This document shows, piece by piece, positions 3,400 through 49,407 of a DNA stretch of 64,000 nt (its first letter is position 1; the number at the start of each line of letters is the position of its first letter). The stretch spans positions 1-64,000 of the IMG/VR virus record IMGVR_UViG_3300031867_000045; one strand, 5' to 3'. The notes under the pieces are model-generated. The model did not search any database. It had not been told where the DNA came from and saw only the letters and a list, made by a program, of their open reading frames with translations. The position numbers and the translations under genes are program-made. This DNA is from a virus.

Positions 3400-3422
3400 A
3401 TGTATTTTCCTTTACTTGTTCA

Positions 3423-4838: not shown

Positions 4839-4933
4839 TGGCGGAGCGGGTGGGACTCGAACCCACACACCGAGATCGCTCGGCTACTTTCTGTGTAGCA
4901 AACAGATACCTTACCAATTAGGTTTACCGCTCC
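4839..4933 (-). tRNA. tRNA-Ser (anticodon GCT), class II with long variable arm
   Basis: 95 nt; anticodon stem tctgt/acaga, loop ttGCTac; long variable arm; T-arm gtggg-ttcgagt-cccac; CCA encoded. Confidence 0.7.
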
Positions 4934-5550
4934 ATTTCTATCGGTTTTAGACTCCATTTATATCCAAAAGCTGTTTTACTCAAACCTCTGGCACAATCAC
5001 TAATATGACCTGGTTTTTTACCAATAAATCTTGCAGCATCAGAATATGATTCAAATGTATGTAATAAGTTGCCGTTAAGATCATATTGATAAATAATCAT
5101 ATGATTTTCTAAATTACTATAATCTTTATTATTAATTGCGTAGTCAATAATATTTTCTGCCGTAAAGTCATCCACACAAAGAGGGATTGAAGCATTTACT
5201 TTTCTTCTACTAAATGCCAATGTCCTTGTAGAACCATTGCAAAATTCAATCGGTAAAAGATAACATTGATTATTGTAATATGTTCCAATCATATCAATTT
5301 CATTTTTCGTGTATTCATGTTTTACATTTTCTTTGCCGGAAGTTGTAATTGAATATGCTTTAATTTTGATTCCCGTTTCAACTTCTACGCAACTTTTTAT
5401 TTGAACTCTTAATAATAAGTTATTAACATCAAGTATAAAATCGTATTTGCAATCTTCTCCAATAGGAACACTCACATTATATCCAAGAGAAGTTAGATAT
5501 GCCTCACACAATAATTCTGTTGCTATCCCTTTTGCTTTACCATTAAACAA
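4924..5550 (-). CDS. homing-endonuclease-like protein (PD-(D/E)XK-like N-domain plus C-terminal NUMOD/AP2-like DNA-binding repeat)
   Basis: 208 aa. N-terminal motif ELLCEAYLTSLGY...DxxxDFIL..RVQIKS resembles a restriction-endonuclease-like core. C-terminal IYQYDLNGNLLHTFESYSDAARFIG..GxISDCARGLSKTAFGYKW is a typical homing-endonuclease DNA-binding module. The stop lies in the 10 nt overlap with the 5' acceptor strand of tRNA-Ser. Confidence 0.5.
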   Translation of the reverse strand: MFNGKAKGIATELLCEAYLTSLGYNVSVPIGEDCKYDFILDVNNLLLRVQIKSCVEVETGIKIKAYSITTSGKENVKHEYTKNEIDMIGTYYNNQCYLLPIEFCNGSTRTLAFSRRKVNASIPLCVDDFTAENIIDYAINNKDYSNLENHMIIYQYDLNGNLLHTFESYSDAARFIGKKPGHISDCARGLSKTAFGYKWSLKPIEMER

Positions 5551-5989
5551 ATTATTCGTTCACCTATTCGCCTATTCAATTTATGGAACTTTGCACTCCG
5601 CAAATATTTAATTTATCACGGAGTGCTTACCGCTCCATATATCCCGCGACTTCCGCCAAAACTATTATGTATCAAATGGTTGCCTTTTGCGAGCCGCGAG
5701 GAATATAGTTTGTTACCTTAGCTGTTATCTCTTTGAATGTTGCAATCAATCTCAGAAGTAGGTTGCTATCCTAATCGTTTATCATCAATTCCGTAGCCAA
5801 TTCGGAAAGATGGATAATCGAAGCCGTGAATCCCGACTCAACATATTGTTCATTTCGCTAAAATGTCACAAAACACGCTGCTTTAGTTGAAACAGTACCC
5901 CATTCTTTGCGGTAAAGAATATGAAAACCCCAATTTCCATAAAGTCTATCGGATAACCAAACTTTGCGGCTAAAGGCAGTTCGACCTTT

Positions 5990-6065
5990 TGGCTGGGTCA
6001 CTCGGAATCGAACCGAGAGCGGTGGGGTCAAAGCCCACTATGTTGACCGGTTACACCACAACCCA
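5990..6065 (-). tRNA. tRNA-Gln (anticodon TTG)
   Basis: 76 nt; anticodon stem gtggg/cccac, loop ctTTGac; T-arm ctcgg-ttcgatt-ccgag; CCA encoded. Confidence 0.6.
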
Positions 6066-6225
6066 TCGTGTGATCGAGCCACAGGACTCACACCTGCGGG
6101 AATGAAGGTTAGGGTTGACTGCGCACATCTCACCTAACAGCATTTATTATTAATCTCGTTCTTTTACTTTACTTCATTACTTCATAATCCGTGCTTTTAA
6201 GAGATTTTCTTTTTGGTCAAGATGT

Positions 6226-6296
6226 TGTGGGAGTCGAACCACACCCTTCCGCCCTTACGCGGGCAGCGTGCTATCCGCTACACTATCACTCTAATC
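6226..6296 (-). tRNA. atypical tRNA-like element (possible pseudogene), anticodon unresolved
   Basis: Canonical D-arm (tagtgtagcggatagcac) and T-loop (ggttcgactccc) are present, but I cannot fold a 7-nt anticodon loop or a matching acceptor stem. Confidence 0.3.
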
Positions 6297-6387
6297 TCTG
6301 CCACCCATCAACAAAATTGTACGGTTTCATTAATGGTTGTACGTTGTGGCACATTTCATATGGCTTTATACTCACTACTCGATCAAA

Positions 6388-6461
6388 TGGAGCGAATAAA
6401 GGGATTTGAACCCTCACAATCAGAATGGAAATCTGATGTGCTACCGTTACACCATATCCGC
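6388..6461 (-). tRNA. tRNA-Gly (anticodon TCC)
   Basis: 74 nt; anticodon stem tcaga/tctga, loop ttTCCat; T-loop ttcaaat; CCA encoded; acceptor gcggata/tattcgc. Confidence 0.7.
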
Positions 6462-6524
6462 AGATTTGTGGGAGGGAAGCGAGGTGTGAAACCCTCCCAC
6501 GAGGTAATCTATAGTTACAAATTA

Positions 6525-8174
6525 TTAGGTGTTATCTGTATTTTCCGGCAAGGTGTCCTTTTTCTGAACGCCATCGGCAGGTACTACCTGAGTAGTAGAT
6601 AGCAGACCCTTTACAGGTTCGGCGATGCTACCCACCAATCCACGAAGTTCATCATTGATCGGCTTGCCGTTAAGGGCTTCATTCTGAACATTCAGAGTTT
6701 TCATCAGCGCAGGAATACTGGATAAGGTATCGACAAGAACGTTGCCGGAACCACTGCCCTGAGAACTTCCGCCGAAGTTGATAAACTCAGCCTTGCTACC
6801 AACTGAACCCATAAGTTCCGCGGCTTTGGTTGCAATCTGCACTTTACCCTCTGTTTCGATCTTCAACTTCTCGATCTCGAAGTTTACTTTCTCGTTAGAC
6901 GCTCTCGCTTCTGCAAGTGCGCGTTCACCTTCGGCTTGTGCCATAAGTTTCTGCTTTTCTACCTCAGCTTCCGCAAGACCTTTCTGCTTGATGACTTCCG
7001 CATCGGCAAGACCTTGCTGTTTTGCAACCTCAGCTTGTGCAAGACCTTTCTGCTTGGTAACGTCAGCTTCGGCATTACCTTTCTGCTTGATGACTTCCGC
7101 AGAAGCATTACCCTCTGTCTTAACCTTTTCCGCTTCTGCTTGTGCTGCGATCTTGATGGCATCCGCGTGGTTTCGTGATACCTGCACCTCTGCCTCTGCA
7201 CTGATAGTCTTTACATTCGCTTCCGCTTCGGCTTCGATGCGCTTCTTCTTCTTTTCTGATTCTGCTCTTGTGGAGATAACTTCCTGCTCCTTGATTGCTG
7301 CGAGATTTGCCTGTTCCTGCTTGACAACCTCAACACGACCCTTTTGCTGTTCTACCTCCTGCGCTCGAATGGTTCTCTGCAACTGACCGGCAACTTCGGC
7401 ATCGGCGTCTGCCTTATCAGTTTCAACCTTGAACGCAGCCATTTTCAGTTTATTATCTCTTTCTTTCTCAGCGATAGCCAACTCGGATTCCAATTCGGTC
7501 TGAGAAGCTGTACGCTCAGATTCAGCGTTTTGAGTACGGATAGCCTGATCTACCTTTGCTTTCTTGCTTTCGGCTTCACGGCGCTTATCCTGCATATCAA
7601 GTTCGGCAATGTTATCATAATAACCATTGTTGTCGTTGATGTCTTGGATGTTAAGGCTTACAAGTTCCATACCCATGTTGAGCATTTCATCCTGAATAAT
7701 ATCCTTAACCTTATTAGCAAATACCGCCTTTTCAGATAGTACACTTTCGGGGGTCATTGATGCTACTACATCACGAACACCACCCATAAGTGTCATTCTG
7801 GTGTCGCTGATAATCGCATCCTTTCCTCTTTCCTTAAAGGAAATGATTGCTTTCAGCAACGTTTCCGGATTTGAAGTATCGGGGCGAATCTGCGCCGTCC
7901 AGTCAATAGTAATCGGTACTGATGTTGCCGTCATAATCTCGTCACCATTTGCCGTTACCGTTAGCATTGACAAATCAAAATAATCATACTTGCGAATAAT
8001 CGGCATTACGAACGCACCGCCCGAAACATGAATTTGCGGTTTCTTGCCGCCCGTTACGATCAGTGCCTTGTCTACGCTTGCGACCTTATACATTGATTTT
8101 CCGATCAGGAAGATAGCCACAAGGATAACCAACGCAATTCCGACAGGAATGAGGATTGATAAATATTGTTCCAT
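6525..8174 (-). CDS. SPFH/band-7 (flotillin/YqiK-like) membrane protein with a long Ala/Glu/Lys-rich repeat tract
   Basis: 549 aa with an N-terminal TM helix and a band-7 core. It contains an 11-aa tandem repeat (KQKGLAEAEVx, about 6 copies, also visible as ~33-bp DNA repeats at 6950-7110) and a long coiled-coil. Confidence 0.65.
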   Translation of the reverse strand: MEQYLSILIPVGIALVILVAIFLIGKSMYKVASVDKALIVTGGKKPQIHVSGGAFVMPIIRKYDYFDLSMLTVTANGDEIMTATSVPITIDWTAQIRPDTSNPETLLKAIISFKERGKDAIISDTRMTLMGGVRDVVASMTPESVLSEKAVFANKVKDIIQDEMLNMGMELVSLNIQDINDNNGYYDNIAELDMQDKRREAESKKAKVDQAIRTQNAESERTASQTELESELAIAEKERDNKLKMAAFKVETDKADADAEVAGQLQRTIRAQEVEQQKGRVEVVKQEQANLAAIKEQEVISTRAESEKKKKRIEAEAEANVKTISAEAEVQVSRNHADAIKIAAQAEAEKVKTEGNASAEVIKQKGNAEADVTKQKGLAQAEVAKQQGLADAEVIKQKGLAEAEVEKQKLMAQAEGERALAEARASNEKVNFEIEKLKIETEGKVQIATKAAELMGSVGSKAEFINFGGSSQGSGSGNVLVDTLSSIPALMKTLNVQNEALNGKPINDELRGLVGSIAEPVKGLLSTTQVVPADGVQKKDTLPENTDNT

Positions 8175-8190
8175 TAAATTCTCCTTTTAT

Positions 8191-8312
8191 GCTTTTCGAG
8201 ATATTTACTGAATATCCCGATATTTTAACCGCATTTCCAGCGGCTCTTGACTACATTTAATATTGTAGCAAATCACCATTCAGTTGTCAAGTGTTTTCGA
8301 GTAATTTCTTAA
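8191..8312 (-). promoter_or_regulatory. promoter cassette: conserved motif, TTGACA-17 bp-TACAAT, hairpin, second motif copy, RBS (drives the SPFH gene)
   Basis: On the minus strand: AAGAAATTACTCGAAAACAC-TTGACA-17-TACAAT, then ccgctggaaatgcgg hairpin, then AAATATCTCGAAAAGCA followed by AAGGAG and ATG. Confidence 0.7.
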
Positions 8313-8320
8313 ATATTTTT

Positions 8321-9061
8321 TTAGAATGTATACCCGTCCATTAATCTCATTTTGAATTTATTTTTCTGATGGAGTGCATCAATCTTGTTCTTTACTGCCC
8401 CATCTTCGCAAATGCCTGTCCGAATATACCGATCAAGCGTTTCGTATGTAAAACCCAGGTTTTCCTCGTCAGTCTTTCCGCACAAACCATCTGATGGCTC
8501 TTTATCCATCAAATAGTCCGATAATCCGAGAGCATACCCAATGTCAATGACTTCACTTTTTGTAAACGGGGCAAGCGGCGACAAATCACCAACAGAATCT
8601 CCGTATCTCGTTGAATATCCGATATAGTCCTCAGATAAATTGCAAGTATTGACAACTCTACCGTTACTGCTCTGTGAAACAGCGTATAATGCAGCCATGC
8701 GGATTCTCGCAGGGAGATTGGTAGTTGTCTGACCGGAAATATTAAGAGTAGGCTCTTTTTCCATTCCGTCTAAAATTCCATCTACGGAATTGCCGATATT
8801 GATGGTAAAACTCTTAATTCTAAGAGTATTCACAAGCGTTTCAGCATATTTAATATCGTCCTGCTCGTGGTCTGGAAGTAAAACGCCGATGACGCGGTTT
8901 TCTCCCAAAGCCTTTACGCACAACGCGGCAACCACAGAGCTATCAATTCCGCCGGAAATTCCGACAATGGCTTTTCCAAAATTGCTATTCTTTCTGAACC
9001 AATCCTTAATCCATTCAGCACACTTTTCAGCATGATAATTTCCAAATCCAAATCTATTCAT
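8321..9061 (-). CDS. nadE: NH3-dependent NAD+ synthetase
   Basis: 246 aa; SGGIDS PP-loop motif and overall NadE-like sequence (GISGGIDSSVVAAL...). Confidence 0.75.
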   Translation of the reverse strand: MNRFGFGNYHAEKCAEWIKDWFRKNSNFGKAIVGISGGIDSSVVAALCVKALGENRVIGVLLPDHEQDDIKYAETLVNTLRIKSFTINIGNSVDGILDGMEKEPTLNISGQTTTNLPARIRMAALYAVSQSSNGRVVNTCNLSEDYIGYSTRYGDSVGDLSPLAPFTKSEVIDIGYALGLSDYLMDKEPSDGLCGKTDEENLGFTYETLDRYIRTGICEDGAVKNKIDALHQKNKFKMRLMDGYTF

Positions 9062-10530
9062 TAGAAATCACCGCCGTGCAAAGTTTTTCTGATTTCTTTC
9101 AGACTGGTTTCTTTCAGCATTTCACCATCACGGAAAATAGGCTTTAACATATTGCAAGGATCATTACTTGCTTCTTCCCAAGTCTTTTGATCTGTATAAG
9201 CAATCCCGCCATAATAATCCTCATAAACAAGACAACAACCCTTTTGAGAAGTCTTGAATCCGCCCTCTTTCGGGTCTTTGAAAATGGGAGTAGGCTTTCC
9301 GTCAATCTCACAATATGTCGCCTTAATACAAGAACTGAAAGTATCACGAGTAAACGGTTTTAGAATCCCATCTTCTTCAATGCACTGGAATGAGAACGAA
9401 CCGACACCGAGAGATACATTACAAGCCGCAAATCCGTTTTCTTTGAGAATTTCATAAATCTTCTCGCAACGCTGAACGGTAATTGAATCACCGTACAGAG
9501 CTTTCACACGAGGATCGAGGACTTTATATCCCTTGCTATTAATATAACCGCCGAACTGATCCCATAACTTGAATACCGTCTTTGTTACGACTTCCACGCA
9601 ATCGCCGGAATCTCCGCGCATAAGCATACAACCATTATGGTTCATAATTTCCTTTTTGAGTTTCGGAAGTACGTTATCAATTACATTCCAGTAATCATAA
9701 GAATCCAAAACGCAAGAAAATGATGTATTCGGGTAAATCTCCGTCAACAGTCTGCGGAGCAAAGTAATTTCATCACCGTCAACCGCAAAATTAGAACACA
9801 TTACAGAATGTTCGGTACTCGGAGCGCCAAATCCAACAGGTTCATTTTTGCAATCACAATTATAATTCTTTTCCAAATACGGAATTGCGGGAACCGTTGC
9901 AGTATTCAAGAATGAAAGCAACCAACCCGCAGCCGCCTTCGTTGCAGACTGTAAACATTCCTCACCGCGAAAATCAAAATCTCCCAACGCTCTTGCTCTC
10001 GGCATATCGTCGTCACAGGTTTCAGCATAATACTTGTTCACGATTTCACGATAAGTTGCGCCGACGGTGGCAGCCAACATGGGGTGCCACATTTCAGCCG
10101 AGATCAGCGATTCAAGCGACTGAGGAAGCCATGCAAAATCGGGATGGGTATTTGTGATTCCGAACATCGGAACGTGCATAGGCACTTTCGTTCCTTCGGG
10201 CAACGCCACAATTTCAATGGGTAAATATCCGAGATTATGCAGTTTCTTGATTTTGTTGATATTATATGTATCTTTTCCAAGAGTGGCGTCCATGATTCTT
10301 TGATATTCAACCAAAATCAGGTCGAGGGGCTTTTCAAAAAATTCTCTGTTGAAGTAATCAATCAGATATTCCTTAATAAATCCCTGCAATCCAAAGAATA
10401 CAACTTCATTCCAGCGCTTTACTCTGCTCATTCTCGGAGTAAAATAAGATACCGATTTTGTGATCTTTTCCGGCAACATTTCAGCGTGTACCGCCTTATA
10501 GTAGTCGATCAATAACATCGGATTCGTCAT
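9061..10530 (-). CDS. nadV: nicotinamide phosphoribosyltransferase (NadV/NAMPT)
   Basis: 489 aa; NAMPT-like blocks (DSYDYWNVI, LMRGDSGD, GVGSFSFQ...TRDTF) and the right length. Confidence 0.75.
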   Translation of the reverse strand: MTNPMLLIDYYKAVHAEMLPEKITKSVSYFTPRMSRVKRWNEVVFFGLQGFIKEYLIDYFNREFFEKPLDLILVEYQRIMDATLGKDTYNINKIKKLHNLGYLPIEIVALPEGTKVPMHVPMFGITNTHPDFAWLPQSLESLISAEMWHPMLAATVGATYREIVNKYYAETCDDDMPRARALGDFDFRGEECLQSATKAAAGWLLSFLNTATVPAIPYLEKNYNCDCKNEPVGFGAPSTEHSVMCSNFAVDGDEITLLRRLLTEIYPNTSFSCVLDSYDYWNVIDNVLPKLKKEIMNHNGCMLMRGDSGDCVEVVTKTVFKLWDQFGGYINSKGYKVLDPRVKALYGDSITVQRCEKIYEILKENGFAACNVSLGVGSFSFQCIEEDGILKPFTRDTFSSCIKATYCEIDGKPTPIFKDPKEGGFKTSQKGCCLVYEDYYGGIAYTDQKTWEEASNDPCNMLKPIFRDGEMLKETSLKEIRKTLHGGDF

Positions 10531-11393
10531 AGATTAAACACCTCGATTTTAGATGGCATTAAGTCAATATCTTTCGCATACTTCTGCGTACTCTTGACAA
10601 AAATGCTATCTGTAGTATATAGTTTCTCGATTAAATCTCCGTGTAACAATTCACCACGAAAAACGGTAAATTCACAATGAGTTACAAATAGATATATCTT
10701 ATCCGCGCCGAGTTCTTTTAACTTCTTCGCAGAATGTAAGAATGTTCCGCCTTTACTGCAAATATCATCAATGATTAAAACTATTTTGTTTTTAATCAAA
10801 TTTGTATCTCCGCAAACATCAAGCCCAAGAATATTTCCAGTTTCCCAATCTCGCCGTTTGATACCAAAAGCGTATGGTCGATTGATCTTGCCGGAATACC
10901 GTTTCATGGCACCTTCATCGGGAAAGAATATCGTTGGATTTGTTATGTAATTATCCTTGCAAACATTCTTAATTGCCTGTTCGATATAGGGAGTAGGTTC
11001 CAAAACGGTCAAATTATCGAACAACGCTTCACTCACAGAAGAATGAGGGTCTAAGACAACCACATTCAAGAATTTCAGCGCATTGATAAATTCCGCAAAA
11101 TATTTCAAAGTGAAAACATCCGATTTTCCCTTTACCCTATCCATTCTGGCGTTCGGAATATACGGCAAGAATAGCTCAACATCATAACCCAATCTTTGCA
11201 GGTGTTTTGTCAGAAATAAGATTGCTGCCATTTCACCGTCATTCTCGTAATGCCATGAAATAGTCACGGATTCTTGAATAGGCTCGACAGACTTCAACTC
11301 GGGTTTCAAGTGCAAAGTTCCATCGGGAAAATGATCGAGGACAACTTCGTTTCCATCAATTTTAATCATTCTGTTACCTCGTCGATCTGGCAA
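10527..11393 (-). CDS. prs: ribose-phosphate pyrophosphokinase (PRPP synthetase)
   Basis: 288 aa; PRPP-binding loop IVLIIDDICSKGGTF and PRPP synthetase N-domain. Confidence 0.7.
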   Translation of the reverse strand: MPDRRGNRMIKIDGNEVVLDHFPDGTLHLKPELKSVEPIQESVTISWHYENDGEMAAILFLTKHLQRLGYDVELFLPYIPNARMDRVKGKSDVFTLKYFAEFINALKFLNVVVLDPHSSVSEALFDNLTVLEPTPYIEQAIKNVCKDNYITNPTIFFPDEGAMKRYSGKINRPYAFGIKRRDWETGNILGLDVCGDTNLIKNKIVLIIDDICSKGGTFLHSAKKLKELGADKIYLFVTHCEFTVFRGELLHGDLIEKLYTTDSIFVKSTQKYAKDIDLMPSKIEVFNL

Positions 11394-21238: not shown

Positions 21239-22243
21239 TTTTTTCTTGAAAAAAATGCTCAATAATTGAACACTTTTTCAGCCGATTTTGACGATAAAAT
21301 TACCATTTGATTTACATTGTTATTTGCTTAGTTTTTTATATATTCTTTCTCTATATTGGTTTACTTTCTTTTGGTATATATTTCCTTTGACCATATCCAA
21401 TATTCTCAAAGCATCATTATACCTCTTTCCAGAAATGTAAAGATCAACGAGCCTAAAAGTCCAGCTCATACTATCAAAGGCTAAACCGCCATTTTGAAAA
21501 ATCAATTCCCAAAAAGATGTGATTTTTTCGTAATCACAATCATTTTCATATTGTTCTTCCGCCTTATTGATTGCCTCAATTTGCATTTCTTGCAATACCA
21601 ATATTTGATATTGCCTCGGAGCAACCTCTTTAAATCTTTCTAATTCTGATTTATCTAATGGGAGTATTCTTTTTACTTTTTTACCAATATACATATTTCT
21701 TACCTCTTATATTCATAATTTTCCGCGCCGGTGATATACTTCTGAAAATCTACGCGAATCAAATCATCGTTTCCGATCTTTTTCACTCCGCTGCCGAATG
21801 CAATTCTTCCGTTTGCTCCGACAAAGTTAATTGTCTTGTTTCCATTCACCGCCATAATCTCGGCATAACATCTTTCTGTCGGCTTTGCGCCGTCGCAAAA
21901 GGTGAATCCCTCGTCCTCGGCAAGCTGCATAAACTTTTCGCCGATTGCCACGTTTGCAAGATATACATATACTCTGCCGTTTTTCTTGCTTAATTCTTCG
22001 ATTGTTCTCATTGATATTTTCCTTTCAAAATAGAATTTTCGTAAAATAAAATCCTATCTTAACCGATAGGATATATCTCACTCCTATCGGTCAAGCATTA
22101 CCACCTTGCCTATTTATCGTCAGATTTTCCGCAAATTGCCGATTGATATGGTAGGTTGGTGTACGGTCATCGGGCTTGCCCCTCGCGTACTCTATATAGG
22201 ACTTATTCTATTACTTATAGTATAGCCAGATTTTCCGGTATTG

Positions 22244-27699: not shown

Positions 27700-27896
27700 A
27701 AAAAGTTTTAAAAAGTAAAAATGTGCGCCTTTTGTGTCCGACTGGATATAAAAGCGCACCACATTACTATATATATAAATATATTATATACTATACATAA
27801 CTTATTATTACCGTATATATAGTAATGTGATTATATATTAATTACTATACATTACTTATAGTAATTATATATTATATACTTATATATGCGATTTTT
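27700..27896. repeat. AT-rich array of 29-bp palindromes (TAATTACTATA-N7-TATAGTAATTA and variants), copy A
   Basis: ttactatacattacttatagtaa and related palindromes; the array ends tatatgcgattttttt; a near-copy lies at 38760-38960 in the same orientation. Confidence 0.6.
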
Positions 27897-37640: not shown

Positions 37641-38970
37641 TTATTTAAACTTTTTTGATGAATTATTGCATTTTGGCGGATTGCACAAACCAACATGATA
37701 TTACTTGTATAATTTGCACAATGCCGGGATCGTGCTGCTATTACTGGATATAGTATTATATATTATACTTATTATATACCACAATATTATATTGCTATAA
37801 AAGAATATTACATACTGTAATATGATATCGGATCAATTACTATTTGTATATTTTATTATTCTATAATAGAATATTGTATAGTCCTGGATCATGCTTATTA
37901 TTCTATTGTAGAATTATAATTTTGTGGGATAAAGTACCGTTTATTGGACTTTGTTTGTATTGAGTACAATAAATTGGACTTTGTAAAGTACATTATTGCG
38001 ATGATATAACTTTAATTGTGATGATTAAATTTGATTGAATTGTGATTATTTTTGATTAAATTTGAGGGAATTTGACTGAGTTTGCTTTTAGGTGTAAAGC
38101 ATTTTACTTTACACCTCTCGAAAAATCTGAAAATCCTTTATTTCTTTTAAAGCATAATAATTTCATAGAATCCATCGGGATCATGCTACAATTCCAAAAT
38201 GTGAATAAAACATTTATTTGATGACTATATTGTAATTCTGTTTTTTGCACTATTACAGAATTAAAGCCCAAAAATTGAGCATTTATACTACTTGCCTACT
38301 TGATAGGTAGGTAGGGGGTAGGTTTACATCTCGAACATCTGTTCGAGCCGGATGCCGGTTTTAATGTGCTCCCCTCTACTCTCACCTCAAAATTTAAATC
38401 CCCCTTACCTGTTCAATTTTTGAACACTCACCGAAAATTACAGTCAACAATTAAAGGTGTTCAATAATTGGTACTTTTTCTGAAAATTAGTCGTTTATCG
38501 AAAACGCAAAAAATTTATTAAAGTGTTCAATAACTGATACTTTTTTGGTGAAATTTTCGACGTACCGAAAACTGAGTAAAAATCCCGCAATTTTTCGTTT
38601 TTATAAAAGCTCAGTTTTTGAACAAAAATATTTTAAGGTAAACGATCAAAACAATCGATCATGGTGGTTTCGAGATAAAAGTTGCGGAAAATTGATGAAA
38701 ACATTTCGGTAATTTTGCTCCGAAATTCTGGTAAGCAACCCGAAAAATCATTCCGAAAATTACCTTAAAACGAAACTGCGACCGCAACTTAATCTATTTA
38801 CTATATACTATACGTTACTTATATAATTACATTGTATATAGATTAAGTAAAGTATATAATTACTATACATAACGTATAGTAAATAATAATTACTATAAGT
38901 AATGTATAGTAATTAATATATATATAATATATATACCTATTTATATGCGATTTTTTAGATCAATTTAAAC
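37641..38970. promoter_or_regulatory. large non-coding divergent control region with several repeat families (candidate replication origin or regulatory hub)
   Basis: No ORF of 60 aa or more. Three copies of GGGATC(G/A)TGCT-type sites (about 37725, 37883, 38173). Perfect inverted repeats ggtgtaaag/ctttacacc and tcgaaca/tgttcga. Two ~32-nt direct repeats (gtgttcaataa-tg-tactttttt) at about 38456 and 38520. At least 8 CCGAAAA repeats at 38400-38760. Palindrome array B at 38760-38960. Confidence 0.5.
38760..38960. repeat. AT-rich 29-bp palindrome array, copy B
   Basis: aattactatacataacgtatagtaa and aattactataagtaatgtatagtaatta; ends tatatgcgatttttt like copy A. Confidence 0.6.
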
Positions 38971-38974
38971 TTAT

Positions 38975-39025
38975 TCAAGAAATATCTCGAAAAGACTTGA
39001 CAACCGAGGAAATATGCTCTACAAT
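38975..39025 (+). promoter_or_regulatory. rightward promoter cassette (motif, TTGACA-17 bp-TACAAT)
   Basis: TCAAGAAATATCTCGAAAAGAC-TTGACA-accgaggaaatatgctc-TACAAT, followed by aacctgcgggattgcaggtt hairpin, then GAGG RBS and ATG at 39085. Confidence 0.7.
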
Positions 39026-39084
39026 GAATATTAGAACATTAAATCAAACCTGCGGGATTGCAGGTTCTTTTATTTGAGGTGTTT

Positions 39085-39654
39085 ATGAAAGATAAGCAAA
39101 CAAATGTGATTTACACTGACGGTCAAAAGAAAATCGTTATCAATGGGAACAATCTCTATATCTCAAAAAGAAATCCTAAAATCAAAACGATTATTTCAAC
39201 CATTGCAATTATCATCATCATTATCTTGCTGGTTCTTCTTGGTTTGAAATCCTGTGACCGCGTTAAACAATATATGGTCGCTACTCCCGACCAAAGTGCC
39301 GTGGAGTGGCAAGGTGAGCAGACAATCAAAAATCCTAATCCGAAAACATCTGCCGGTTCGTATATTCCCGGATTCGCTGTTCTCAATCTTGTATCTAATA
39401 CAAAGAATCAAAAGGTTAATTTTTATAACCCATCTGAGAATAGCTGCTACTTCAAAATGTATTTGTTTATTGACAACGAGCTTGTATGGAAATCTGATTA
39501 CATTAAGCCCGGAACCGGATTTTATGATATTCAGCTTAGTCGCACATTCGTGCCTTGTACGACAAAAGGATATTTGAAAATTGAATGCTACACCATGGCT
39601 GAAACGCGATTAACGAAAACCGTTAATGTAAATTTTGACGTAGAAATATATTAA
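39085..39654 (+). CDS. membrane protein (single TM)
   Basis: Hydrophobic stretch IISTIAIIIIIILLVLLGL. The ATG at 39085 is preferred over the TTG at 39058 because the upstream part forms the leader hairpin. Confidence 0.45.
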   Translation: MKDKQTNVIYTDGQKKIVINGNNLYISKRNPKIKTIISTIAIIIIIILLVLLGLKSCDRVKQYMVATPDQSAVEWQGEQTIKNPNPKTSAGSYIPGFAVLNLVSNTKNQKVNFYNPSENSCYFKMYLFIDNELVWKSDYIKPGTGFYDIQLSRTFVPCTTKGYLKIECYTMAETRLTKTVNVNFDVEIY

Positions 39655-39680
39655 TAATTTTATGAAAGGATTGGTACGAA

Positions 39681-40214
39681 ATGAGAAAATTCATTTCCCT
39701 TGTACTTGCCGTAGCCATGTTGGTTTCTGCTGTTGGCATCGTTACGGCTTATGCTGAGGATTATCGTGAGGACGGTAATACTTTCGCAAATTCAACAGTT
39801 ACATTTAGACAGCCGAGTTCATATTGTATTTTTATCCCCGACATGATTGGTCTTGATTATGACTATCAGATCAGCGGATCAGATATGAACATTTCTGATC
39901 GTGAGTGTTTACGAGTCCTATTGAGCGGTCTTGATTCTGAGAACCATGTGACTTTTGAAAGCCAGGACGGAACCGCTACTTTGAAGAAGTCTATCGAACC
40001 CAAGGTTTTGTTGAACGGCGGCACTACACTCAGCGATTTGGGTTGCCCATCGAATTGTGTGGGTTATTTTCTAAAAGGCGATACAATGTCGGAAGTTGCT
40101 TTCGGACTTAGTGAAGGCTATTCTGATTTTCATTCAAATAACGGCATGACGCAGCCGCCCGCCGGAGAATATTTTGCTCCTGTTACATTTGAAATTTCTT
40201 TAAATAGTTTCTAA
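39681..40214 (+). CDS. secreted or lipoprotein-like hypothetical protein
   Basis: N-terminal signal peptide MRKFISLVLAVAMLVSAVGIVTAYA. Confidence 0.45.
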   Translation: MRKFISLVLAVAMLVSAVGIVTAYAEDYREDGNTFANSTVTFRQPSSYCIFIPDMIGLDYDYQISGSDMNISDRECLRVLLSGLDSENHVTFESQDGTATLKKSIEPKVLLNGGTTLSDLGCPSNCVGYFLKGDTMSEVAFGLSEGYSDFHSNNGMTQPPAGEYFAPVTFEISLNSF

Positions 40215-40234: not shown

Positions 40235-43048
40235 TTGGAGCAAAAAAGCTGTCATCGTCTTGTTTATAAGATTGACAGTTCAATGTTAAAGAGGGCAAAT
40301 TGGAAGCTCAATTTATCACTTCAAACCGCCATGAGAACTTGCCCCGATGTTATTGTTGCACTGAACGATAGCCAGTGTTTGAGATTCATTGATGAAATCA
40401 ATGGCGTCGCAGATGTCAATAATAAAGTTCGAGCTATCCAAAACAAAATCAAAAAAATAAAGAAGAAGCCGAAAAGCAGAGAGAATCTTAAACTGATTAA
40501 CTGCTATTACGAAACTCTTTATGGTTTACAATTTCAGCGCGACTATATCAGCGTTGTAATGAATAGCAAAGAAGACTATGATCGGGCTAATTTAGGGTTC
40601 TCAATAAATTATGGCTTAATTGACAATAAAGAGTGTATTATTCATTACCGCCGTTTTTTAGGCACGAACGGCGGTATCAAGAAATCCACTATTGTATATG
40701 TCAATGAACAAATCTATACAGAGTTGAAACGCCGACTTGATAATGGCAGAAATCCAAACGGAGAATTTGTACCTGCAAAATTAGAAGCCTATCAAGGTTT
40801 GATTTGTTCTGGTTCCATTCCTCTCCCATCTCCAAAAGGAGTGATTGTCGTTAGAGATTGTATCACCCATTTTAAGGAAGATGTTATACTAATTGATGAC
40901 AGTGGAGAAGGCGAACCAAAATTAACATACGAAGACAATTATGAAATTGAACATAATGATTCTGATGGATATGGGTTAATGACACCGGAATATTCACGTG
41001 TTGTTAATAATTTTCTTTGCGGAGAGGATAAACCGATTTCCGGAATGAATACTCGTTCTGCATTTACTAAGGGTATGCTTTACACCTTTGATTTTAAAGA
41101 ATTTGCAGAAAAGATAGCAGGTACTTTTGAGGTCGAGGACGTATGGGGAGATAAGCGCGATATCCGAGATGCCGATGTAATACTCACGGAATCCATGCTC
41201 AAATTGTGGTCAAGTTATGATAGTTGGGAAGATTATCTTGAAAATTGCAAAAAAAACAATTATCACTTGTCGGCAACAAAGACTACTCCCGATCAATTAG
41301 AAAACGTCCGAGATACGAACTATCAATTTTTGCAATCGTATGAGTTTTCAGACGATGATCTGTATAATTTGTGTTTGCCGACCATCAAAGAAATTAAGGA
41401 TGTAATTGGTTTAGACTACCGTAAAAGTTTAACGTTTCTTGCCGGATTCGGTTTAGACGACAATACAGCATTTAGTCAAAACCTTAATTCATATATTAAG
41501 GCATTGATGGTTGAGCCTAAATTAATCAATGATCCGTTTATCCGAAAGAAAATATACCATATGATTCGTAAACGAATTGAAATGGGTGAGCGTGGCGCAA
41601 TTCGTATTAAGGCGAATTACGCTATGATAAGTGGTGATCCATACGCACTTTGCCAGTCTATTTTTAATCTTACCGTTACAGGATTGTTAAAAGCAGGAGA
41701 AGTATATCACAAATATTGGATTGATCGCGGTTCGGATGAAATAGCTTGTTTCCGTGCTCCGATGACGTGTCACAATAATATCCGCAAAATGAAACTCTCG
41801 CGCTCACCCGAAGCTGCTTATTGGTATCGTTACATTGATACGGCACTGATCTACAATGCGTGGGATAGTTCATGCGAGGCTATGAACGGCGCGGATAAAG
41901 ACGGCGATACTAATATGTGTACCGATGATCCAATTATTGTTCAAAACACAAAACCACTTCGGACAATAATTTGTTTACAGAAAAACGCAAAAAAAATCAT
42001 TCCTACCGAGGAATCTATTATTGAAGCAAATAAATTAGCTTTTAATGATGAAATCGGAGAAGTAACGAACCGAGTTACAAGCATGATTTGTATTGCCGAT
42101 GGTTTTCCAAAGGAATCAGAAGAATATAAGGTTTTGCAATACCGCATTATGTGTGGTCAGTTATTCCAGCAAAATACAATAGACCGAGCAAAAGGTATTA
42201 TTTCAAAATCCATGCCCGTTCATTGGTATTCAATGCGAGATAATCTTATCGGAGAAGATGATAATGAGGAATCAAAAGCAAAAAAGATATTCAATCAAAA
42301 AATTGTTGCTTCTCGGAAACCTTATTTTATGGGATATGTTTATCCTAAACTTCGTGCTGAAAATAATACTTACATTAAAAATAATACTTTAGGTGCAATT
42401 CGCCGCTTTAGTGAATTTGGTATTAATGATATTACCGATTTGATTTCATATGAAAACCCAACTCCTGAAATGAAGGAATATTTGGATTACTACAATAAGC
42501 TGACGCCAGTTGATAATAATAAATGTGTTATTAATCGAATTGCATGGTTATTTGAATCAGAGTTCAAAACGTTTATGTCGGATTATTCAAGAAAGATACG
42601 CGAGTCAGATAATTGCATATTTGATTATAGAATCATGAAATCCGGCGTTGAATATAGCCAGTTGCAGTATGATAAAATATCGGAAATATACAAAGAGTAC
42701 CAACTAAGGACTAAAGAATACCGCAAAGAATCTCGAATCAAAAAGGTCGAGAAGTATGACAATATCGAGCAACACATGATTTTGGTAAATTTCTTTAAAC
42801 GAGAGTGTGAGGAAATTTGCCCGAATGAATATGAATTATGTGATATTCTTTTGGATATGTGCTATCAAGCGGAAACTTCAAAACAATTTGTATGGGATAT
42901 GTGCGGAGATACTATCCTTCAAAATCTTTTAAAGAAACATGATTATGAATTAACATATCCTAAACTGGTTTCCGATCAAGGTGAATTTGAATATTGCGGA
43001 GAACAATTCATTATGCAGAAAACGCGAATCGAGGTGATTGATGTATGA
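40235..43048 (+). CDS. large protein (937 aa) with a NADFDGD-like motif; candidate non-canonical two-barrel RNA polymerase (YonO/QDE-1-like)
   Basis: TTG start 9 nt after AGGAG. The motif AMNGADKDGDTNM resembles the metal-binding NADFDGD loop of multisubunit RNAP beta-prime, YonO, and the DYDGD of QDE-1. No other polymerase family motif (PolB, primase) is evident. Confidence 0.35.
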   Translation: MEQKSCHRLVYKIDSSMLKRANWKLNLSLQTAMRTCPDVIVALNDSQCLRFIDEINGVADVNNKVRAIQNKIKKIKKKPKSRENLKLINCYYETLYGLQFQRDYISVVMNSKEDYDRANLGFSINYGLIDNKECIIHYRRFLGTNGGIKKSTIVYVNEQIYTELKRRLDNGRNPNGEFVPAKLEAYQGLICSGSIPLPSPKGVIVVRDCITHFKEDVILIDDSGEGEPKLTYEDNYEIEHNDSDGYGLMTPEYSRVVNNFLCGEDKPISGMNTRSAFTKGMLYTFDFKEFAEKIAGTFEVEDVWGDKRDIRDADVILTESMLKLWSSYDSWEDYLENCKKNNYHLSATKTTPDQLENVRDTNYQFLQSYEFSDDDLYNLCLPTIKEIKDVIGLDYRKSLTFLAGFGLDDNTAFSQNLNSYIKALMVEPKLINDPFIRKKIYHMIRKRIEMGERGAIRIKANYAMISGDPYALCQSIFNLTVTGLLKAGEVYHKYWIDRGSDEIACFRAPMTCHNNIRKMKLSRSPEAAYWYRYIDTALIYNAWDSSCEAMNGADKDGDTNMCTDDPIIVQNTKPLRTIICLQKNAKKIIPTEESIIEANKLAFNDEIGEVTNRVTSMICIADGFPKESEEYKVLQYRIMCGQLFQQNTIDRAKGIISKSMPVHWYSMRDNLIGEDDNEESKAKKIFNQKIVASRKPYFMGYVYPKLRAENNTYIKNNTLGAIRRFSEFGINDITDLISYENPTPEMKEYLDYYNKLTPVDNNKCVINRIAWLFESEFKTFMSDYSRKIRESDNCIFDYRIMKSGVEYSQLQYDKISEIYKEYQLRTKEYRKESRIKKVEKYDNIEQHMILVNFFKRECEEICPNEYELCDILLDMCYQAETSKQFVWDMCGDTILQNLLKKHDYELTYPKLVSDQGEFEYCGEQFIMQKTRIEVIDV

Positions 43049-43929: not shown

Positions 43930-44162
43930 TTAATTTTGTTACGGATAGCAATTTGTAGATGAAACAATTAGGTGTAGATACAACATATAGTAAAACCCAC
44001 TATTTAAGCCATTTTTAACACTATATATTGTGTTAAAAGAAATTTTCAAAATTTCGTTAAATGAAGGGAATATACCCTTTATACTCTCATTTCTTTATCT
44101 TTCTCTTTCTCTTGATGACGCACCAGCTCGGCAAGAGTTGGGCTGGTGCAATCCCTTTATAT

Positions 44163-45038: not shown

Positions 45039-45794
45039 ATGATAGGAATATATAAATTTACAAACAAATTAACAGGCAAATCTTATATCGGACAAAGTAG
45101 AGATATACATAAAAGATACATTCAACATAAATGTAGGCACGAAATATGTTTACACGAAGATGCGCCAAAAGAAGATACATACTTCCATTCAATGCTTAGA
45201 CATTATGGATTTCATAATTTTGATTTTGAAATTTTAGAAGAATGTGAAATATCGGAATTGAACGAAAAGGAAGTTTATTATATTCAAAAATACAACACTT
45301 TATATCCGAATGGTTATAACAAAGATAAAGGTGGAAACACACCTCATCCTAATGCACTTAAATCTTATGAAGATGTTGATGAAATAATAGAACTGTTAAA
45401 AACAACAAAACTTTCAAATATCGAAATTGGAAACAAATATGGAGTATCAGACCAATCAATTTCAGATATAAACAATGGTAGGACTTGGATAAGAGATGAT
45501 ATTAAATATCCAATCCGAAATACATTTGAAGCAAAAAAGATTATTTGGAAATGTAATTCATGTGGGAAAGTATTATCTGGTAAAACCAAAAGCGGATTAT
45601 GCAGAAGTTGTTTGAATAAAAACATACAGGATAATTCTTCTATGCCTGATAAAGAAATATTATATAATTTATTATTACAATATTCGTTTACTTATGTGGG
45701 TGATAAATTTGGAGTTACCAGTAACGCTGTAAGAAAATGGTGTGACAAATATAATATCCCACGACATTCTTCATATTACAAAAATGTTGCTTAA
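45039..45794 (+). CDS. GIY-YIG homing endonuclease (I-TevI/Seg-like) with C-terminal zinc finger and HTH
   Basis: N-terminal GIYKFTNKLTGKSYIGQS...R...YFHSML..G..NFDFEILE...NEKEVYYIQKYNTLYPNGYN is a textbook GIY-YIG core; C-terminal CNSCG...CRSC zinc finger; sits inside the tRNA cluster. Confidence 0.75.
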   Translation: MIGIYKFTNKLTGKSYIGQSRDIHKRYIQHKCRHEICLHEDAPKEDTYFHSMLRHYGFHNFDFEILEECEISELNEKEVYYIQKYNTLYPNGYNKDKGGNTPHPNALKSYEDVDEIIELLKTTKLSNIEIGNKYGVSDQSISDINNGRTWIRDDIKYPIRNTFEAKKIIWKCNSCGKVLSGKTKSGLCRSCLNKNIQDNSSMPDKEILYNLLLQYSFTYVGDKFGVTSNAVRKWCDKYNIPRHSSYYKNVA

Positions 45795-46111: not shown

Positions 46112-47554
46112 ATGGCTAAAAAGAAATTAAAATCTGATGGAATCTTTTTCACGGGAAAAGCCTCGGAAGATGTTACTGGATCACAATACTTGGTAAAATT
46201 TGGAGAAACACAATGCCTATTAGAATGCGGCTTGCACCAATCATCAAGTAATGATTATTTAGATTCGTACAAAATCAACTCAGAGAAATTTCAATTTAAG
46301 CCAAAAGAAATTGATTATGTTTTTGTGGCACATGCTCATATCGACCATTGCGGTTTAATTCCAAGATTGGTTAAAGAAGGATTTGCCGGAAAAATTATTG
46401 CAACAAAAAATACAGCGGAAATTATGAAGCCCTTGCTTTTCAATTCTTGCGCAATAGTGCAGGAAGAAGCAAGGGTTTTGTCATATCGTTATAAAAGAGA
46501 ATATAAACCATTGTATGAACAGGCAGATGTTGAGAAAGCATTGAACATGATCGAGGTATTCAATGAGTATGATTATATTTACAAACTAAACGATAACATC
46601 AGTTTTAAATGGCTGCATAATTCTCATTGTGTCGGAGCGGCACAGCTATTATTAATATTGAAAAATGGATCAAAAACCAAAAAATTGTTATACACATCAG
46701 ATATGGGTTCATTAAAAACAAAAAATCATTATGTTACAAACACCGAAATTCCAACCGATTTTGCGGATTGCGTTATCATGGAAAGTACATATGGTGATTC
46801 TAAGAGAATTTCAAAAAAGAAACGTTCTTACGATATAGAGCATTTAAGAGTTGCTATTAATACGGTTTTGGAACGCAAAGGAACTATAATTCTTCCATGT
46901 TTTAGTTTTAGCCGAACCCAAGAATTATTGACGAATTTATACGATATTTTTTCTGGTGAAAATGATTTTAACACACCAATATATGTAGATTCAAAACTGA
47001 GTTGTGATATTAGTAAACTTTATTCATCAATTCTATCTGGTAGTGATTTAAAATTATGGGATCAAGTATCTAATTGGGATAATGTTCACTTCATTGAAGA
47101 AAAAGATGAATCGAAGTCCATCATAGCAAATACAGCCCCGAAGATAGTATTATCATCTTCTGGATTCTGCACCAATGGCAGGATCATTGGATATTTGAAA
47201 AAATATATTAAAGATAATAATTCGATGGTGGTTTTCTCTGGCTACGTTGGTGATAATCCATCATATTTATCATATCGAATCAAAAATTACCGTGAGAATA
47301 AAGGAATTAAAATCAATAAGGAATACGTGCCAAATCGTGCCGATTGTATTACATTATCTACATTTAGTAGTCATGCTGATTATAATGATTTGATTAAATA
47401 TGGCAGTTCATTAAATACAAACAAATTGATTTTAGTTCACGGATCATCGGAAGCAAAGCATTGTTTGGCGGAAGGCTTACGTCCGGCAATTTCAAAAAAT
47501 GACAAAACATATCGTGTCATAGAGTCCTATAAGGGTATGATGATACGATTATAG
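46112..47554 (+). CDS. metallo-beta-lactamase-fold beta-CASP family nuclease (RNase J/CPSF/Artemis-like)
   Basis: 480 aa; MBL motifs (HAHIDHCG = HxHxDH motif 2, downstream His/Asp ligands) followed by a beta-CASP-like C-terminal region. Confidence 0.55.
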   Translation: MAKKKLKSDGIFFTGKASEDVTGSQYLVKFGETQCLLECGLHQSSSNDYLDSYKINSEKFQFKPKEIDYVFVAHAHIDHCGLIPRLVKEGFAGKIIATKNTAEIMKPLLFNSCAIVQEEARVLSYRYKREYKPLYEQADVEKALNMIEVFNEYDYIYKLNDNISFKWLHNSHCVGAAQLLLILKNGSKTKKLLYTSDMGSLKTKNHYVTNTEIPTDFADCVIMESTYGDSKRISKKKRSYDIEHLRVAINTVLERKGTIILPCFSFSRTQELLTNLYDIFSGENDFNTPIYVDSKLSCDISKLYSSILSGSDLKLWDQVSNWDNVHFIEEKDESKSIIANTAPKIVLSSSGFCTNGRIIGYLKKYIKDNNSMVVFSGYVGDNPSYLSYRIKNYRENKGIKINKEYVPNRADCITLSTFSSHADYNDLIKYGSSLNTNKLILVHGSSEAKHCLAEGLRPAISKNDKTYRVIESYKGMMIRL

Positions 47555-47565
47555 GGGGTAACAAT

Positions 47566-48183
47566 ATGGCATTAAATATGGAAAATGTCACAGAAAATTT
47601 CTCATACGAGTATTACGATAGATTCTTAATAGAAGATATTGAAGATAGAAGAATTTTTATTAATTCTGAAATTGATGAAACAGTTGTTGATTTGGCTTTG
47701 CATCATATCATCGAATTTAACAGGCAAGATAAAGATGTTCCCATCGAAAAACGCAAGCCAATTCGTGTTTATATTAACTCACCAGGGGGAACGGTATCTG
47801 ATGGATTTGGTTTCATAGATAGCATCATCAATTCTAAGACACCTGTTTATACGATTAATCTTGCACAAGCGGCGTCAATGGCATTTTTGATTTTTATTGC
47901 AGGGCATAAGAGATATACGATGCCCCATGCGGAATTTTTAATGCACGATGGCAGCACCGGAAGTTTTGGCAGTTCTTCTAAAGTAAAGGATCGTATTGAA
48001 TTTGAGTCTATTCAATTAGAAGGAATGACGAAGCAATATGTGATTAGCAGAACTAATATAGATGACGATTTATATGAAAACAAACGTCGAGTTGAGTGGT
48101 ACTTTCTTGCAGATGAAGCCAAGGCTATCGGAGCCGTAGATGTAATCGTTGGCAAAGATTGTGATATTGACGAAATTTTATAA
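47566..48183 (+). CDS. ClpP-family serine peptidase (S14)
   Basis: 205 aa; INSPGG, catalytic-Ser context AASMAFLIF, His context FLMHDGSTG, all co-linear with ClpP. Confidence 0.65.
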   Translation: MALNMENVTENFSYEYYDRFLIEDIEDRRIFINSEIDETVVDLALHHIIEFNRQDKDVPIEKRKPIRVYINSPGGTVSDGFGFIDSIINSKTPVYTINLAQAASMAFLIFIAGHKRYTMPHAEFLMHDGSTGSFGSSSKVKDRIEFESIQLEGMTKQYVISRTNIDDDLYENKRRVEWYFLADEAKAIGAVDVIVGKDCDIDEIL

Positions 48184-48204
48184 TTAATAAAAACAAGGAG
48201 AGTT

Positions 48205-49407
48205 ATGAGTTTTAAAAGATTAGAAAATGAGAACGAAGAACAATTCTTGTGGCGGCTGGGACAAGCCAAAGATAAAGGGCTGGTTGATTTAAGTTGGGAT
48301 GATATAGCTTCAATTATGAACAAAGAGTTTAGAGAAGATATTTCCGAATATCGGAGCGAAGCTGCTTATCGAAAACCTTATCAGCAAGCTAAACGATTTT
48401 ATGAAAATGGAACATTTCAAGATTTGACACAAGAGTTGTATATAAAAGAACTTAGAGATGCAAAACATGAAGTTCGTATTGAAAAACAAAAATTATTCGA
48501 CGAGCGCACCGCTCTAAATAAGATTCTTAGAGAATCCGCAAGAGCGGAGGAAGATTTAGCTCGTTTAGAAGTGTTGATAAGAGAAAATGGTGAAACCGTT
48601 TTCCAGAATACTTGTCCGGAAATCAAAACAGCCGACAATGATTTGGTTGTTTGTTTATCTGATTTTCATTTAGGTATGAATACAAATAATTATTTTGGAA
48701 TCTACAATTCTGAAATTGCGGAAAAACGACTTCAAGATTATTTACAGCAAATAATTGACATAGCAGAATTACATAAATCAGAAAATGTATACTTAATTCT
48801 GCTCGGTGATCTCCTAAGTGGTCAGATACATTTTACAACACAACTTGAAAACCGCGAAAATGTGACGCAACAAGTTCAAAAAAGTGCTGAATTGATTTCT
48901 GCATTTGTTTATGAATTAAGCCGACATTTTTCTGCTGTATATGTAAATGGAGTCGCAGGTAATCATTCACGCACTTCATTTAAAGATCAAGTTCTAAGAG
49001 ACAATAGATTAGACAATCTGATACCTTGGTATATGAAAGCAAAACTATCTCATGTTGATAACATCAAATTTATTGACGATCAAAATATAGATGCTACAAT
49101 CGGGTGCTGCGAAATTCGGGGGCAAAAATATTTGATGGTTCATGGTGATTTCGATAGTTTTAGTGAATCAGGTGTTTCAAAACTCGTGTTAATGCTCGGA
49201 TATAAACCATCTGCTATTTTTTATGGTCATTTGCACCGCTGTTCATACGACAGTATAGCTGGCGTCAAAATCATAAGGAGCGGTAGTTTTTGCGGAACTT
49301 CCGATGATTACACAATTTCAAAGAGATTAAGTGGATCAGCTTCACAAATGGTTTGTGTTGTAACAGATAAAGGAGTACGGACTTGTTATCCGATTGATTT
49401 AAATTAA
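48205..49407 (+). CDS. calcineurin-like metallophosphoesterase (Mre11/SbcD-like) with N-terminal coiled-coil extension
   Basis: 400 aa; phosphoesterase motifs DFHLG (I), LLGDL (II), GNHS (III), VHGDFD, GHLH in canonical order in the C-terminal 250 aa. Confidence 0.6.
   Translation: MSFKRLENENEEQFLWRLGQAKDKGLVDLSWDDIASIMNKEFREDISEYRSEAAYRKPYQQAKRFYENGTFQDLTQELYIKELRDAKHEVRIEKQKLFDERTALNKILRESARAEEDLARLEVLIRENGETVFQNTCPEIKTADNDLVVCLSDFHLGMNTNNYFGIYNSEIAEKRLQDYLQQIIDIAELHKSENVYLILLGDLLSGQIHFTTQLENRENVTQQVQKSAELISAFVYELSRHFSAVYVNGVAGNHSRTSFKDQVLRDNRLDNLIPWYMKAKLSHVDNIKFIDDQNIDATIGCCEIRGQKYLMVHGDFDSFSESGVSKLVLMLGYKPSAIFYGHLHRCSYDSIAGVKIIRSGSFCGTSDDYTISKRLSGSASQMVCVVTDKGVRTCYPIDLN

Follow-up and report, generated by a model that had tools for sequence, protein, structure and literature searches.

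The locus studied here raises two questions: which enzyme is encoded by the largest open reading frame (ORF) of a phage DNA, and from which site and on which genes would that enzyme act? The ORF lies at 40235-43048 on the plus strand of a 64,000-nucleotide stretch (positions 1 to 64,000 of IMG/VR virus record IMGVR_UViG_3300031867_000045; hereafter the window). An initial annotation, made from the letters alone, had proposed with low confidence that its product is a two-barrel RNA polymerase of the YonO/QDE-1 type. We conclude, with a probability of about 85%, that the ORF encodes a YonO-family two-barrel (double-psi beta-barrel, DPBB) single-polypeptide RNA polymerase, carried by a large temperate phage. 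The protein has the two-barrel fold, homology to YonO and the full set of eight active-site residues, and its gene is strictly paired with the gene downstream (the partner gene). YonO-type enzymes are very distant relatives of cellular RNA polymerase, the simplest ones known, and have been discussed as models of a single-chain ancestor. The enzyme adds a member to the YonO family, known from Bacillus phage SPbeta, and does not represent a new enzyme class. Its identity is not new, since the homologue CST179/178 of Clostridium phage c-st is already counted as YonO-like in the literature (PMC7824862).

Homologues of the 937-residue protein

The ORF listing confirmed that the 937-amino-acid ORF is the largest of the window. 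Its start codon is TTG, with an AGGAG ribosome-binding site 9 nucleotides (nt) 5', and this start is backed by equal-length homologues (P0001, 99% identical, 937 amino acids) with the consensus N-terminus MxQK. The initial annotation had seen no hallmark of the PolA, PolB, primase or helicase families, which agrees with Pfam, where the window polymerase had no match. This lack of a Pfam match counts against the assignment, as does the lack of a match in sequence searches of the PDB with either the single protein or a 100-sequence profile. A search of PHROGs returned only families of unknown function.

Identification came from tblastn against phage genomes, Pfam searches with homologues, and fold comparison. 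The tblastn search retrieved CST179/178 of phage c-st (39.5% identity, annotated as a YonO homologue), Enterocloster phages (~37% identity; the PMBT24 gene is labelled 'RNA-dependent RNA polymerase'), the polymerase of Bacillus phage BUCT082 (30% identity) and yonO of SPbeta-like phages (E = 1e-20 to 1e-24). By BLASTP, SPBc2 YonO was matched with E = 6e-27 over residues 124-663, with ADKDGD opposite FDNDGD. The gathering threshold of the Pfam family RdRP (PF05183) is 23.8 bits; homologues with 83%, 67%, 63% and ~39% identity to the window polymerase scored 29.3, 27.4, 32.5 and 38.1 bits, respectively, and c-st CST179 scored 34.2 bits. YonO itself, like the window polymerase, had no PF05183 match. 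The homology to YonO, the PF05183 scores of homologues and the fold matches described below bear out the two-barrel assignment.

The family comprises 1718 clusters at 50% identity (E <= 0.001, exhaustive profile-free search) and is very large among prophages of gut and rumen Clostridia. Among species-representative genomes, the gene was found in Ruminococcus sp. YE282 (61% identity), Lacrimispora, Frisingicoccus and [Clostridium] aerotolerans, as well as in many Lachnospiraceae genomes and metagenome-assembled genomes. Because related polymerase genes occur in Clostridia contigs, the host of the phage is likely a Clostridia bacterium.

Active site and predicted fold

The polymerase gene and its active-site segments are located as follows:

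40235-43048, plus strand, predicted YonO-family single-chain two-barrel RNA polymerase, 937 amino acids (from homology, active-site residues and fold)
40964-41071, plus strand, active-site residues of the beta-like barrel, D244 (in SDGYG) with R274 and K279 (in TRSAFTKGML); residue set from PMC2919709
41753-41761, plus strand, R507-A-P509 (in FRAPMTCH), counterpart of the invariant pair R446/P448 of Rpb1
41894-41908, plus strand, predicted catalytic aspartate triad D554-K-D556-G-D558, aligned with FDNDGD of YonO

Conservation was assessed in an alignment of 100 homologues, 36-83% identical to the window polymerase. D244, R274, K279, R507, P509, D554, D556 and D558 were invariant in all of them. 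R507-A-P509 also resembles the NRAPTLH motif of beta'. According to Ruprich-Robert and Thuriaux (2010, PMC2919709), eight residues are invariant in two-barrel RNA polymerases (four Asp, two Arg/Lys plus an Arg, and a Pro); in QDE-1 these are D709, R738, K743, R962, P964 and D1007/1009/1011. The correspondence was assigned via motifs and spacing, which is 30/5/.../2/45 in the window polymerase versus 29/5/.../2/43 in QDE-1. All eight residues are kept in YonO, Perkons and PMBT24, and the triad of BUCT082 reads DFDYD, with all three Asp retained.

The peptide AMNGADKDGDTNMCTDD, which the initial annotation had singled out for its likeness to NADFDGD, is indeed present (encoded by nt 41879-41929), and conservation of the triad rules out a chance match. 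A 3D>3N mutant of the YonO triad is inactive, and a mutagenic primer in the supplement of the same paper identifies FDNDGD as the triad that was changed from Asp to Asn (PMC5467207). By its alignment with this segment, DKDGD is the predicted catalytic triad of the window polymerase.

We next consider the fold. An AlphaFold2 model built from the homologue alignment had a predicted local distance difference test (pLDDT) score of 90.0 and a predicted template modelling (pTM) score of 0.85. Foldseek against the PDB matched this model to QDE-1 (E = 2.8e-17), maize RDR2 (E = 2.7e-16) and the phage polymerase 8f72 (E = 2.4e-6). The model also resembles the polymerase of crAss-like phage phi14:2, phage polymerases of the P23-45/P74 type, and isolated DPBB domains. 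The initial annotation had named a missing DPBB domain, or assignment to another family, as what would speak against it; the model and the Foldseek comparison led to two-barrel enzymes and DPBB domains. Matches to beta'/Rpb1 subunits had E values above 0.1 and were not significant. A beta' subunit of a multi-subunit enzyme, with an NADFDGD loop inside a large architecture (clamp, bridge helix, trigger loop) and a separate beta subunit, was rejected. A T7-like (Pol A-type) single-subunit RNA polymerase, with its right-hand fold of palm, fingers and thumb, was also considered and rejected, as there was no Pfam match and every significant fold match was to a two-barrel enzyme.

Comparison with known polymerases

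The window polymerase is homologous to YonO over ~540 residues, with both barrels on a single polypeptide and the motifs in the same order (K182, D208, D244-G, R274...K279-G, R507-x-P509, DxDGD, IDxAK and a C-terminal W...GD..L.N block). Like yonO, its gene stands at the head of an SPbeta-like late module with HU and YonG_N genes. However, the two proteins are only 26% identical, and the window polymerase is longer (937 versus 839 amino acids), with added N-terminal and central segments. The C-terminal zinc ribbon of YonO is absent from it and sits instead on the separate 294-amino-acid partner, together with an added winged-helix domain. The hosts differ as well, Bacillus for YonO versus gut and rumen Clostridia for relatives of the window phage.

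CST179/CST178 with CST177 of c-st, PMBT24 and BUCT082 belong to the subfamily of the window polymerase (39.5%, 37% and 30% identity, respectively, over near-full length) and have a downstream partner gene, as in the window. In contrast to the window, none of them has the CU-rich element described below. The c-st gene is split by a 317-nt insert within the triad (DxD|GD), and other relatives are split at residue 650/651, whereas the window gene is uninterrupted. QDE-1 and RDR2 (PF05183) share the eight active-site residues with matching spacing, but at 13-15% identity, and the template expected here would be DNA, by analogy with YonO.

The polymerases phi14:2 gp66, Thermus phage P23-45/P74 gp64/gp62 and gp96 have no detectable sequence similarity to the window polymerase. 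The phi14:2 and P23-45/P74-type enzymes are virion-delivered or early-gene polymerases. In contrast, the window gene lies in a host-promoter-driven operon upstream of late genes, as does yonO. With regard to cellular beta' and beta, RAP...DxDGD in one barrel and D...R/K...K-G in the other take the roles of the beta' and beta motifs, respectively. The differences are a single 937-amino-acid chain versus a five-subunit catalytic core of ~400 kDa, and ADKDGD versus NADFDGD.

Polymerase genes of relatives are broken at two recurrent, highly conserved sites. One is located between D556 and G557, inside DxDGD (317 nt in c-st, ~1 kb in L154, 283 nt in L170), and the other at residue 650/651, in IDRAKG (0.4-1.2 kb in CB473P1, L170, L197 and L198). 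The CB473P1 insert carries a 250-amino-acid ORF. These inserts are probably self-splicing introns or inteins; Rfam found no group I introns in them. PHROGs 25339 and 35857 and many metagenomic 'proteins' are halves split at these sites. The interrupting inserts were recorded at the following positions:

L002, 5665-5983
L007, 2026-3134
also in L154, L170, L197 and L198

Operon context and proposed role

The following features precede and follow the polymerase gene:

38977-38993, plus strand, copy of the 20-nt motif discussed below, AAGAAATATCTCGAAAA, ending 3 nt before the -35 box of the polymerase operon promoter
38997-39025, plus strand, sigma-A/sigma-70-type promoter TTGACA-17-TACAAT, 11 of 12 consensus positions, presumed to serve the host polymerase
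39047-39066, plus strand, GC-rich hairpin within the predicted 5' leader, in a layout shared with the early promoters of the phage
39058-40214, plus strand, two small co-oriented upstream ORFs, their position kept in the close relative L004
43045-43929, plus strand, partner gene, 294 amino acids, overlapping the polymerase stop codon by 4 nt (ATGA), candidate accessory or initiation factor

Judged by eye from the translations, one of the small upstream ORFs includes a stretch that would span a membrane, and the N-terminus of the other looks like a signal peptide. Genes for nicotinamide adenine dinucleotide (NAD) salvage, an integrase and a sliding clamp are found in the minus-strand cluster (1-38 kb), along with many tRNAs. 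In the plus-strand cluster, the polymerase and partner genes are accompanied by an array of nine tRNAs and by genes for a GIY-YIG endonuclease, a beta-CASP nuclease, ClpP, an exonuclease, terminase and portal; HU and YonG_N proteins were placed in this cluster by synteny with the close relatives L004 and L005. The phage is a large temperate phage, as the window carries an integrase gene, and related prophages are present in Ruminococcus, Lachnospiraceae and other Clostridia.

The plus-strand gene layout is that of SPbeta. YonO of SPbeta acts processively as a DNA-dependent RNA polymerase (Forrest et al. 2017, PMC5467207). Once induced, it uses one start site to transcribe 37 late genes, and 37 late genes fall silent when yonO is deleted (PMC5467207). 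By analogy, the window enzyme would likewise be a processive DNA-dependent RNA polymerase, and a two-step scheme is most likely. The host polymerase would make the phage enzyme early, from the sigma-A-type promoter at 38997-39025, and the phage enzyme would then transcribe the plus-strand tRNA and late structural cluster that starts just downstream.

The partner protein

In the protein encoded by the partner gene, a helical N-terminal region is joined to a winged-helix domain and to two Cys4 zinc ribbons, which account for its eight invariant cysteines. It is homologous to c-st CST177 (E = 3e-36), a protein that the c-st annotators had already tied to the YonO C-terminus. The partner was present in all 76 genome loci with enough downstream sequence and was directly adjacent to the polymerase gene in 75 of them. 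The BUCT082 partner, 29% identical to that of the window, has a zinc ribbon that matched YonO residues 777-820 (E = 4e-5) and the Perkons C-terminus (E = 2e-6). For the partner encoded in the window, E was 2.5e-4 against Perkons and only 0.055 against YonO.

Since the partner ribbons match the C-termini of YonO and Perkons, the ribbon appears to sit on a protein of its own here and to have been joined to the polymerase chain in YonO. Furthermore, the overlapping stop and start codons suggest translational coupling. From the ribbon fusion, the strict synteny and the codon overlap, we infer that the partner is an accessory factor of the polymerase, acting in DNA binding or initiation. The order of winged helix and zinc ribbon recalls TFE/TFIIE, by resemblance only.

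A conserved non-coding element before the tRNA array

Between the partner gene and the tRNA array lies a conserved non-coding element with the following parts:

44034-44160, plus strand, conserved non-coding element (TATATG-like box, hairpin 1, CU-rich tract, hairpin 2), candidate late promoter or leader RNA
44061-44082, plus strand, hairpin 1, stem sequences varying among relatives with pairing retained
44084-44115, plus strand, CU-rich tract CTCTCATTTCTTTATCTTTCTCTTTCTCTTGA, with an exact 23-nt core at 44086-44108
44120-44149, plus strand, hairpin 2 GCACCAGCTCGGCAAGAGTTGGGCTGGTGC, with covariation

The element starts 105 nt past the partner stop codon, ends 13 nt before the first late-side tRNA and is single-copy in the window. 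It was found only beside the polymerase-partner gene pair and is kept in relatives whose partner proteins are only ~45-80% identical; its near-invariant tract reads CTCTCATTTCTTTATCTTTCTCTTTTCTT across relatives. The 23-nt core had 29 exact matches in IMG/VR, all single-copy, and followed a same-strand partner gene in each of the 26 matches with upstream sequence visible. In hairpin 2, 91.8% of cells were paired and 9 of 11 pairs showed compensatory changes. This covariation was not reached in any of 500 shuffles, and slid controls were far lower. The frequent G-U pairs in hairpin 2 indicate an RNA structure on the plus strand. An Rfam search of the element returned no family.

Several other identities were rejected. 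In the alignment, judged by eye, no -35 partner lies 16-18 nt from the TATATG-like box, arguing against a sigma-A promoter. A coding function was discarded because indels among relatives break every reading frame. Pairing of the CU-rich element RNA with the 20-nt motif (TTTCTTGATT being complementary to AATCAAGAAA) was discarded as well, as the window copy is imperfect and L005 has the element without the motif.

The element would mark the start of the late transcript, either as promoter or as 5' leader RNA. We hold this view only tentatively and regard it as doubtful, because hairpin 1, followed by the T-rich tract, may do no more than terminate the polymerase operon. Two further points weigh against it: the element could be a separate small RNA, and it was detected only in the closest subfamily, at a partner identity of at least ~45% or, among the genome loci, a polymerase identity of at least ~56%. 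As a late promoter or leader, the element is a better candidate than the 20-nt motif.

In SPbeta, a single YonO start site, at genome position 2225998, is followed by a non-coding RNA (PMC5467207). Using the published primer pair, we bounded this site to L001:5916-6158. The Spbetavirus BUCT082 has the polymerase-partner type, with a polymerase 25% identical to YonO. Its regions are:

L117 (BUCT082), 3260-6870, polymerase and partner
L117 (BUCT082), 7440-8960, late leader region

The late leader region (HU to yonK), the part that spans the YonO start site, is nearly the same in BUCT082 and SPbeta; Rfam searches of this region in both phages found only the DUF3800-VIII small RNA. Thus, dissimilar polymerases are combined with near-identical presumptive promoter regions, which suggests that two polymerase types may serve the same promoter.

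These features can be joined in a speculative model, which we consider possible but doubtful. The polymerase and its partner would form a two-protein transcription system, in which the partner recognises the promoter or opens the DNA (YonO has a bare ribbon fused), and the element would be the cognate late promoter or an obligatory 5' leader. If true, YonO-type two-barrel polymerases would gain their first model of a promoter with an initiation factor; Forrest et al. 2017 had left open both the promoter of YonO and its need for a helper protein (PMC5467207). Most family members form a strict gene pair with a winged-helix/zinc-ribbon protein that is partly fused in YonO, and in one subfamily the expected start of the late transcript is occupied by a single non-coding element of extreme conservation. 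Partner and element are concrete, bench-testable candidates for the initiation factor and the promoter.

Alternative explanations

Might the enzyme instead be an RNA-dependent RNA polymerase like QDE-1 and RDR2, copying or amplifying phage or host RNA? Its best structural matches are eukaryotic RNA-dependent polymerases, homologues score in Pfam RdRP, and GenBank annotators name homologues 'RNA-dependent RNA polymerase', including those of PMBT24 and Perkons. These names tell against a DNA-dependent enzyme of the late genes, as does the fact that the template specificity, timing and targets assigned here come by analogy with YonO, which is only 26% identical. However, the GenBank labels stem from the Pfam family name and not from experiments, YonO is the only member of the bacterial and phage clade with biochemistry, and the gene is located in an SPbeta-like module upstream of late genes. 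We thus consider an RNA template highly improbable. An active two-barrel polymerase with a non-transcriptional role, making for example replication primers or one specific non-coding RNA only, would fit the fact that the sequence data leave the target unfixed, and the conserved element beside the gene could then be a dedicated template or product. Against this stand the silencing of 37 late genes upon yonO deletion in SPbeta and the placement of the gene, which heads the late cluster in every relative examined, leaving such a role with very little probability.

A DNA-dependent polymerase of the late genes remains our preferred reading of the enzyme, and a different promoter for it had been proposed in the initial annotation, namely the 20-nt motif AAGAAATWWCTCGAAAA. 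The motif is real: 19 copies with at most 2 mismatches were found versus 0.26 expected. It is strand-specific and lies directly before ribosome-binding sites or sigma-A promoters, as tandem phage and host promoters could look. Were the motif (aatCAAGAAATWWCTCGAAAAGc) the promoter, the polymerase would re-transcribe early and middle genes and its own operon, instead of or besides the late cluster. A phage with an 83%-identical polymerase has the variant AATCAAGAAATAAAGCAAAA at the corresponding two positions, differing in the 3' half of the motif, which is compatible with co-evolution of polymerase and promoter. However, 16 of the 19 copies reside in the minus-strand early/middle cluster (8-38 kb) and only one in the late cluster (57505), whereas SPbeta YonO has a single start site and transcribes the late operon only. 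In eight copies the motif ends 3-5 nt before a TTGACA-17-TATAAT promoter, and one of these eight precedes the polymerase operon's own promoter. This position abutting the -35 box is the place of an UP element or activator site, which argues against a phage-polymerase promoter. Another eight copies are found directly before a Shine-Dalgarno sequence, most of them downstream of a sigma-A-type promoter and GC hairpin, i.e. in a 5' leader. Moreover, no copy was found within 10 kb on either side of the polymerase gene in a phage whose polymerase is 67% identical; in that stretch, plain A-tracts lie upstream of the -35 boxes. The proposal of a cognate promoter was thus not supported, given the early-region location, the sigma-A promoter and leader anatomy and the divergence in relatives, and we consider it unlikely. 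In our view, the motif belongs to an early-promoter and leader cassette that recurs in this phage, where it would serve as UP element, operator or leader element.

The order within this early cassette, with motif copies spread over 8193-38993, is motif, TTGACA-17-TATAAT, GC hairpin, motif and Shine-Dalgarno. Paired motif copies are 96-110 nt apart (25433/25529, 34473/34583 and 8207/8308) and could be an UP element or operator pair. The cassette recalls the promoter/stem-loop (PeSL) cassettes of T4-type phages.

Other features of the window

Arrays of TATACTATACATAAC/TTATAGTAA-type repeats occupy the AT-rich divergent region between the gene clusters (37700-38940) and also 27778-27878; an origin or a set of operators could be their role. 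A similar array is present in L004 at 8136-8311.

The window contains 19 tRNA genes. One of them (285-357, minus strand) has the anticodon UUA and is predicted to suppress ochre (UAA) codons; under the standard code, the large ORFs examined are read normally throughout. A transfer-messenger RNA (tmRNA) gene (4240-4692, minus strand; Rfam RF00023, 90.7 bits, full length) lies amid minus-strand tRNA genes. In the late-side array, a GIY-YIG homing endonuclease gene (45039-45794, plus strand) is inserted between tRNA-Ala and tRNA-Thr.

From the tRNA array to terminase (46112-49407, plus strand) there follow genes for a beta-CASP/metallo-beta-lactamase nuclease, a ClpP protease and a metallophosphoesterase exonuclease, all position-conserved in relatives. 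Note that the relatives' copy of the beta-CASP nuclease matches RMMBL and Anti-Pycsar_Apyc1.

The early region contains an S-adenosylmethionine (SAM) riboswitch (22051-22202, minus strand; RF00162, 49.6 bits, above threshold) upstream of a 124-amino-acid ORF (21320-21694). Auxiliary metabolic genes are located at 2438-3211 and 8321-11393 on the minus strand. Besides a Thg1-like tRNA-His guanylyltransferase, they encode the enzymes of an NAD module, namely NAD synthetase, nicotinamide phosphoribosyltransferase and ribose-phosphate pyrophosphokinase.

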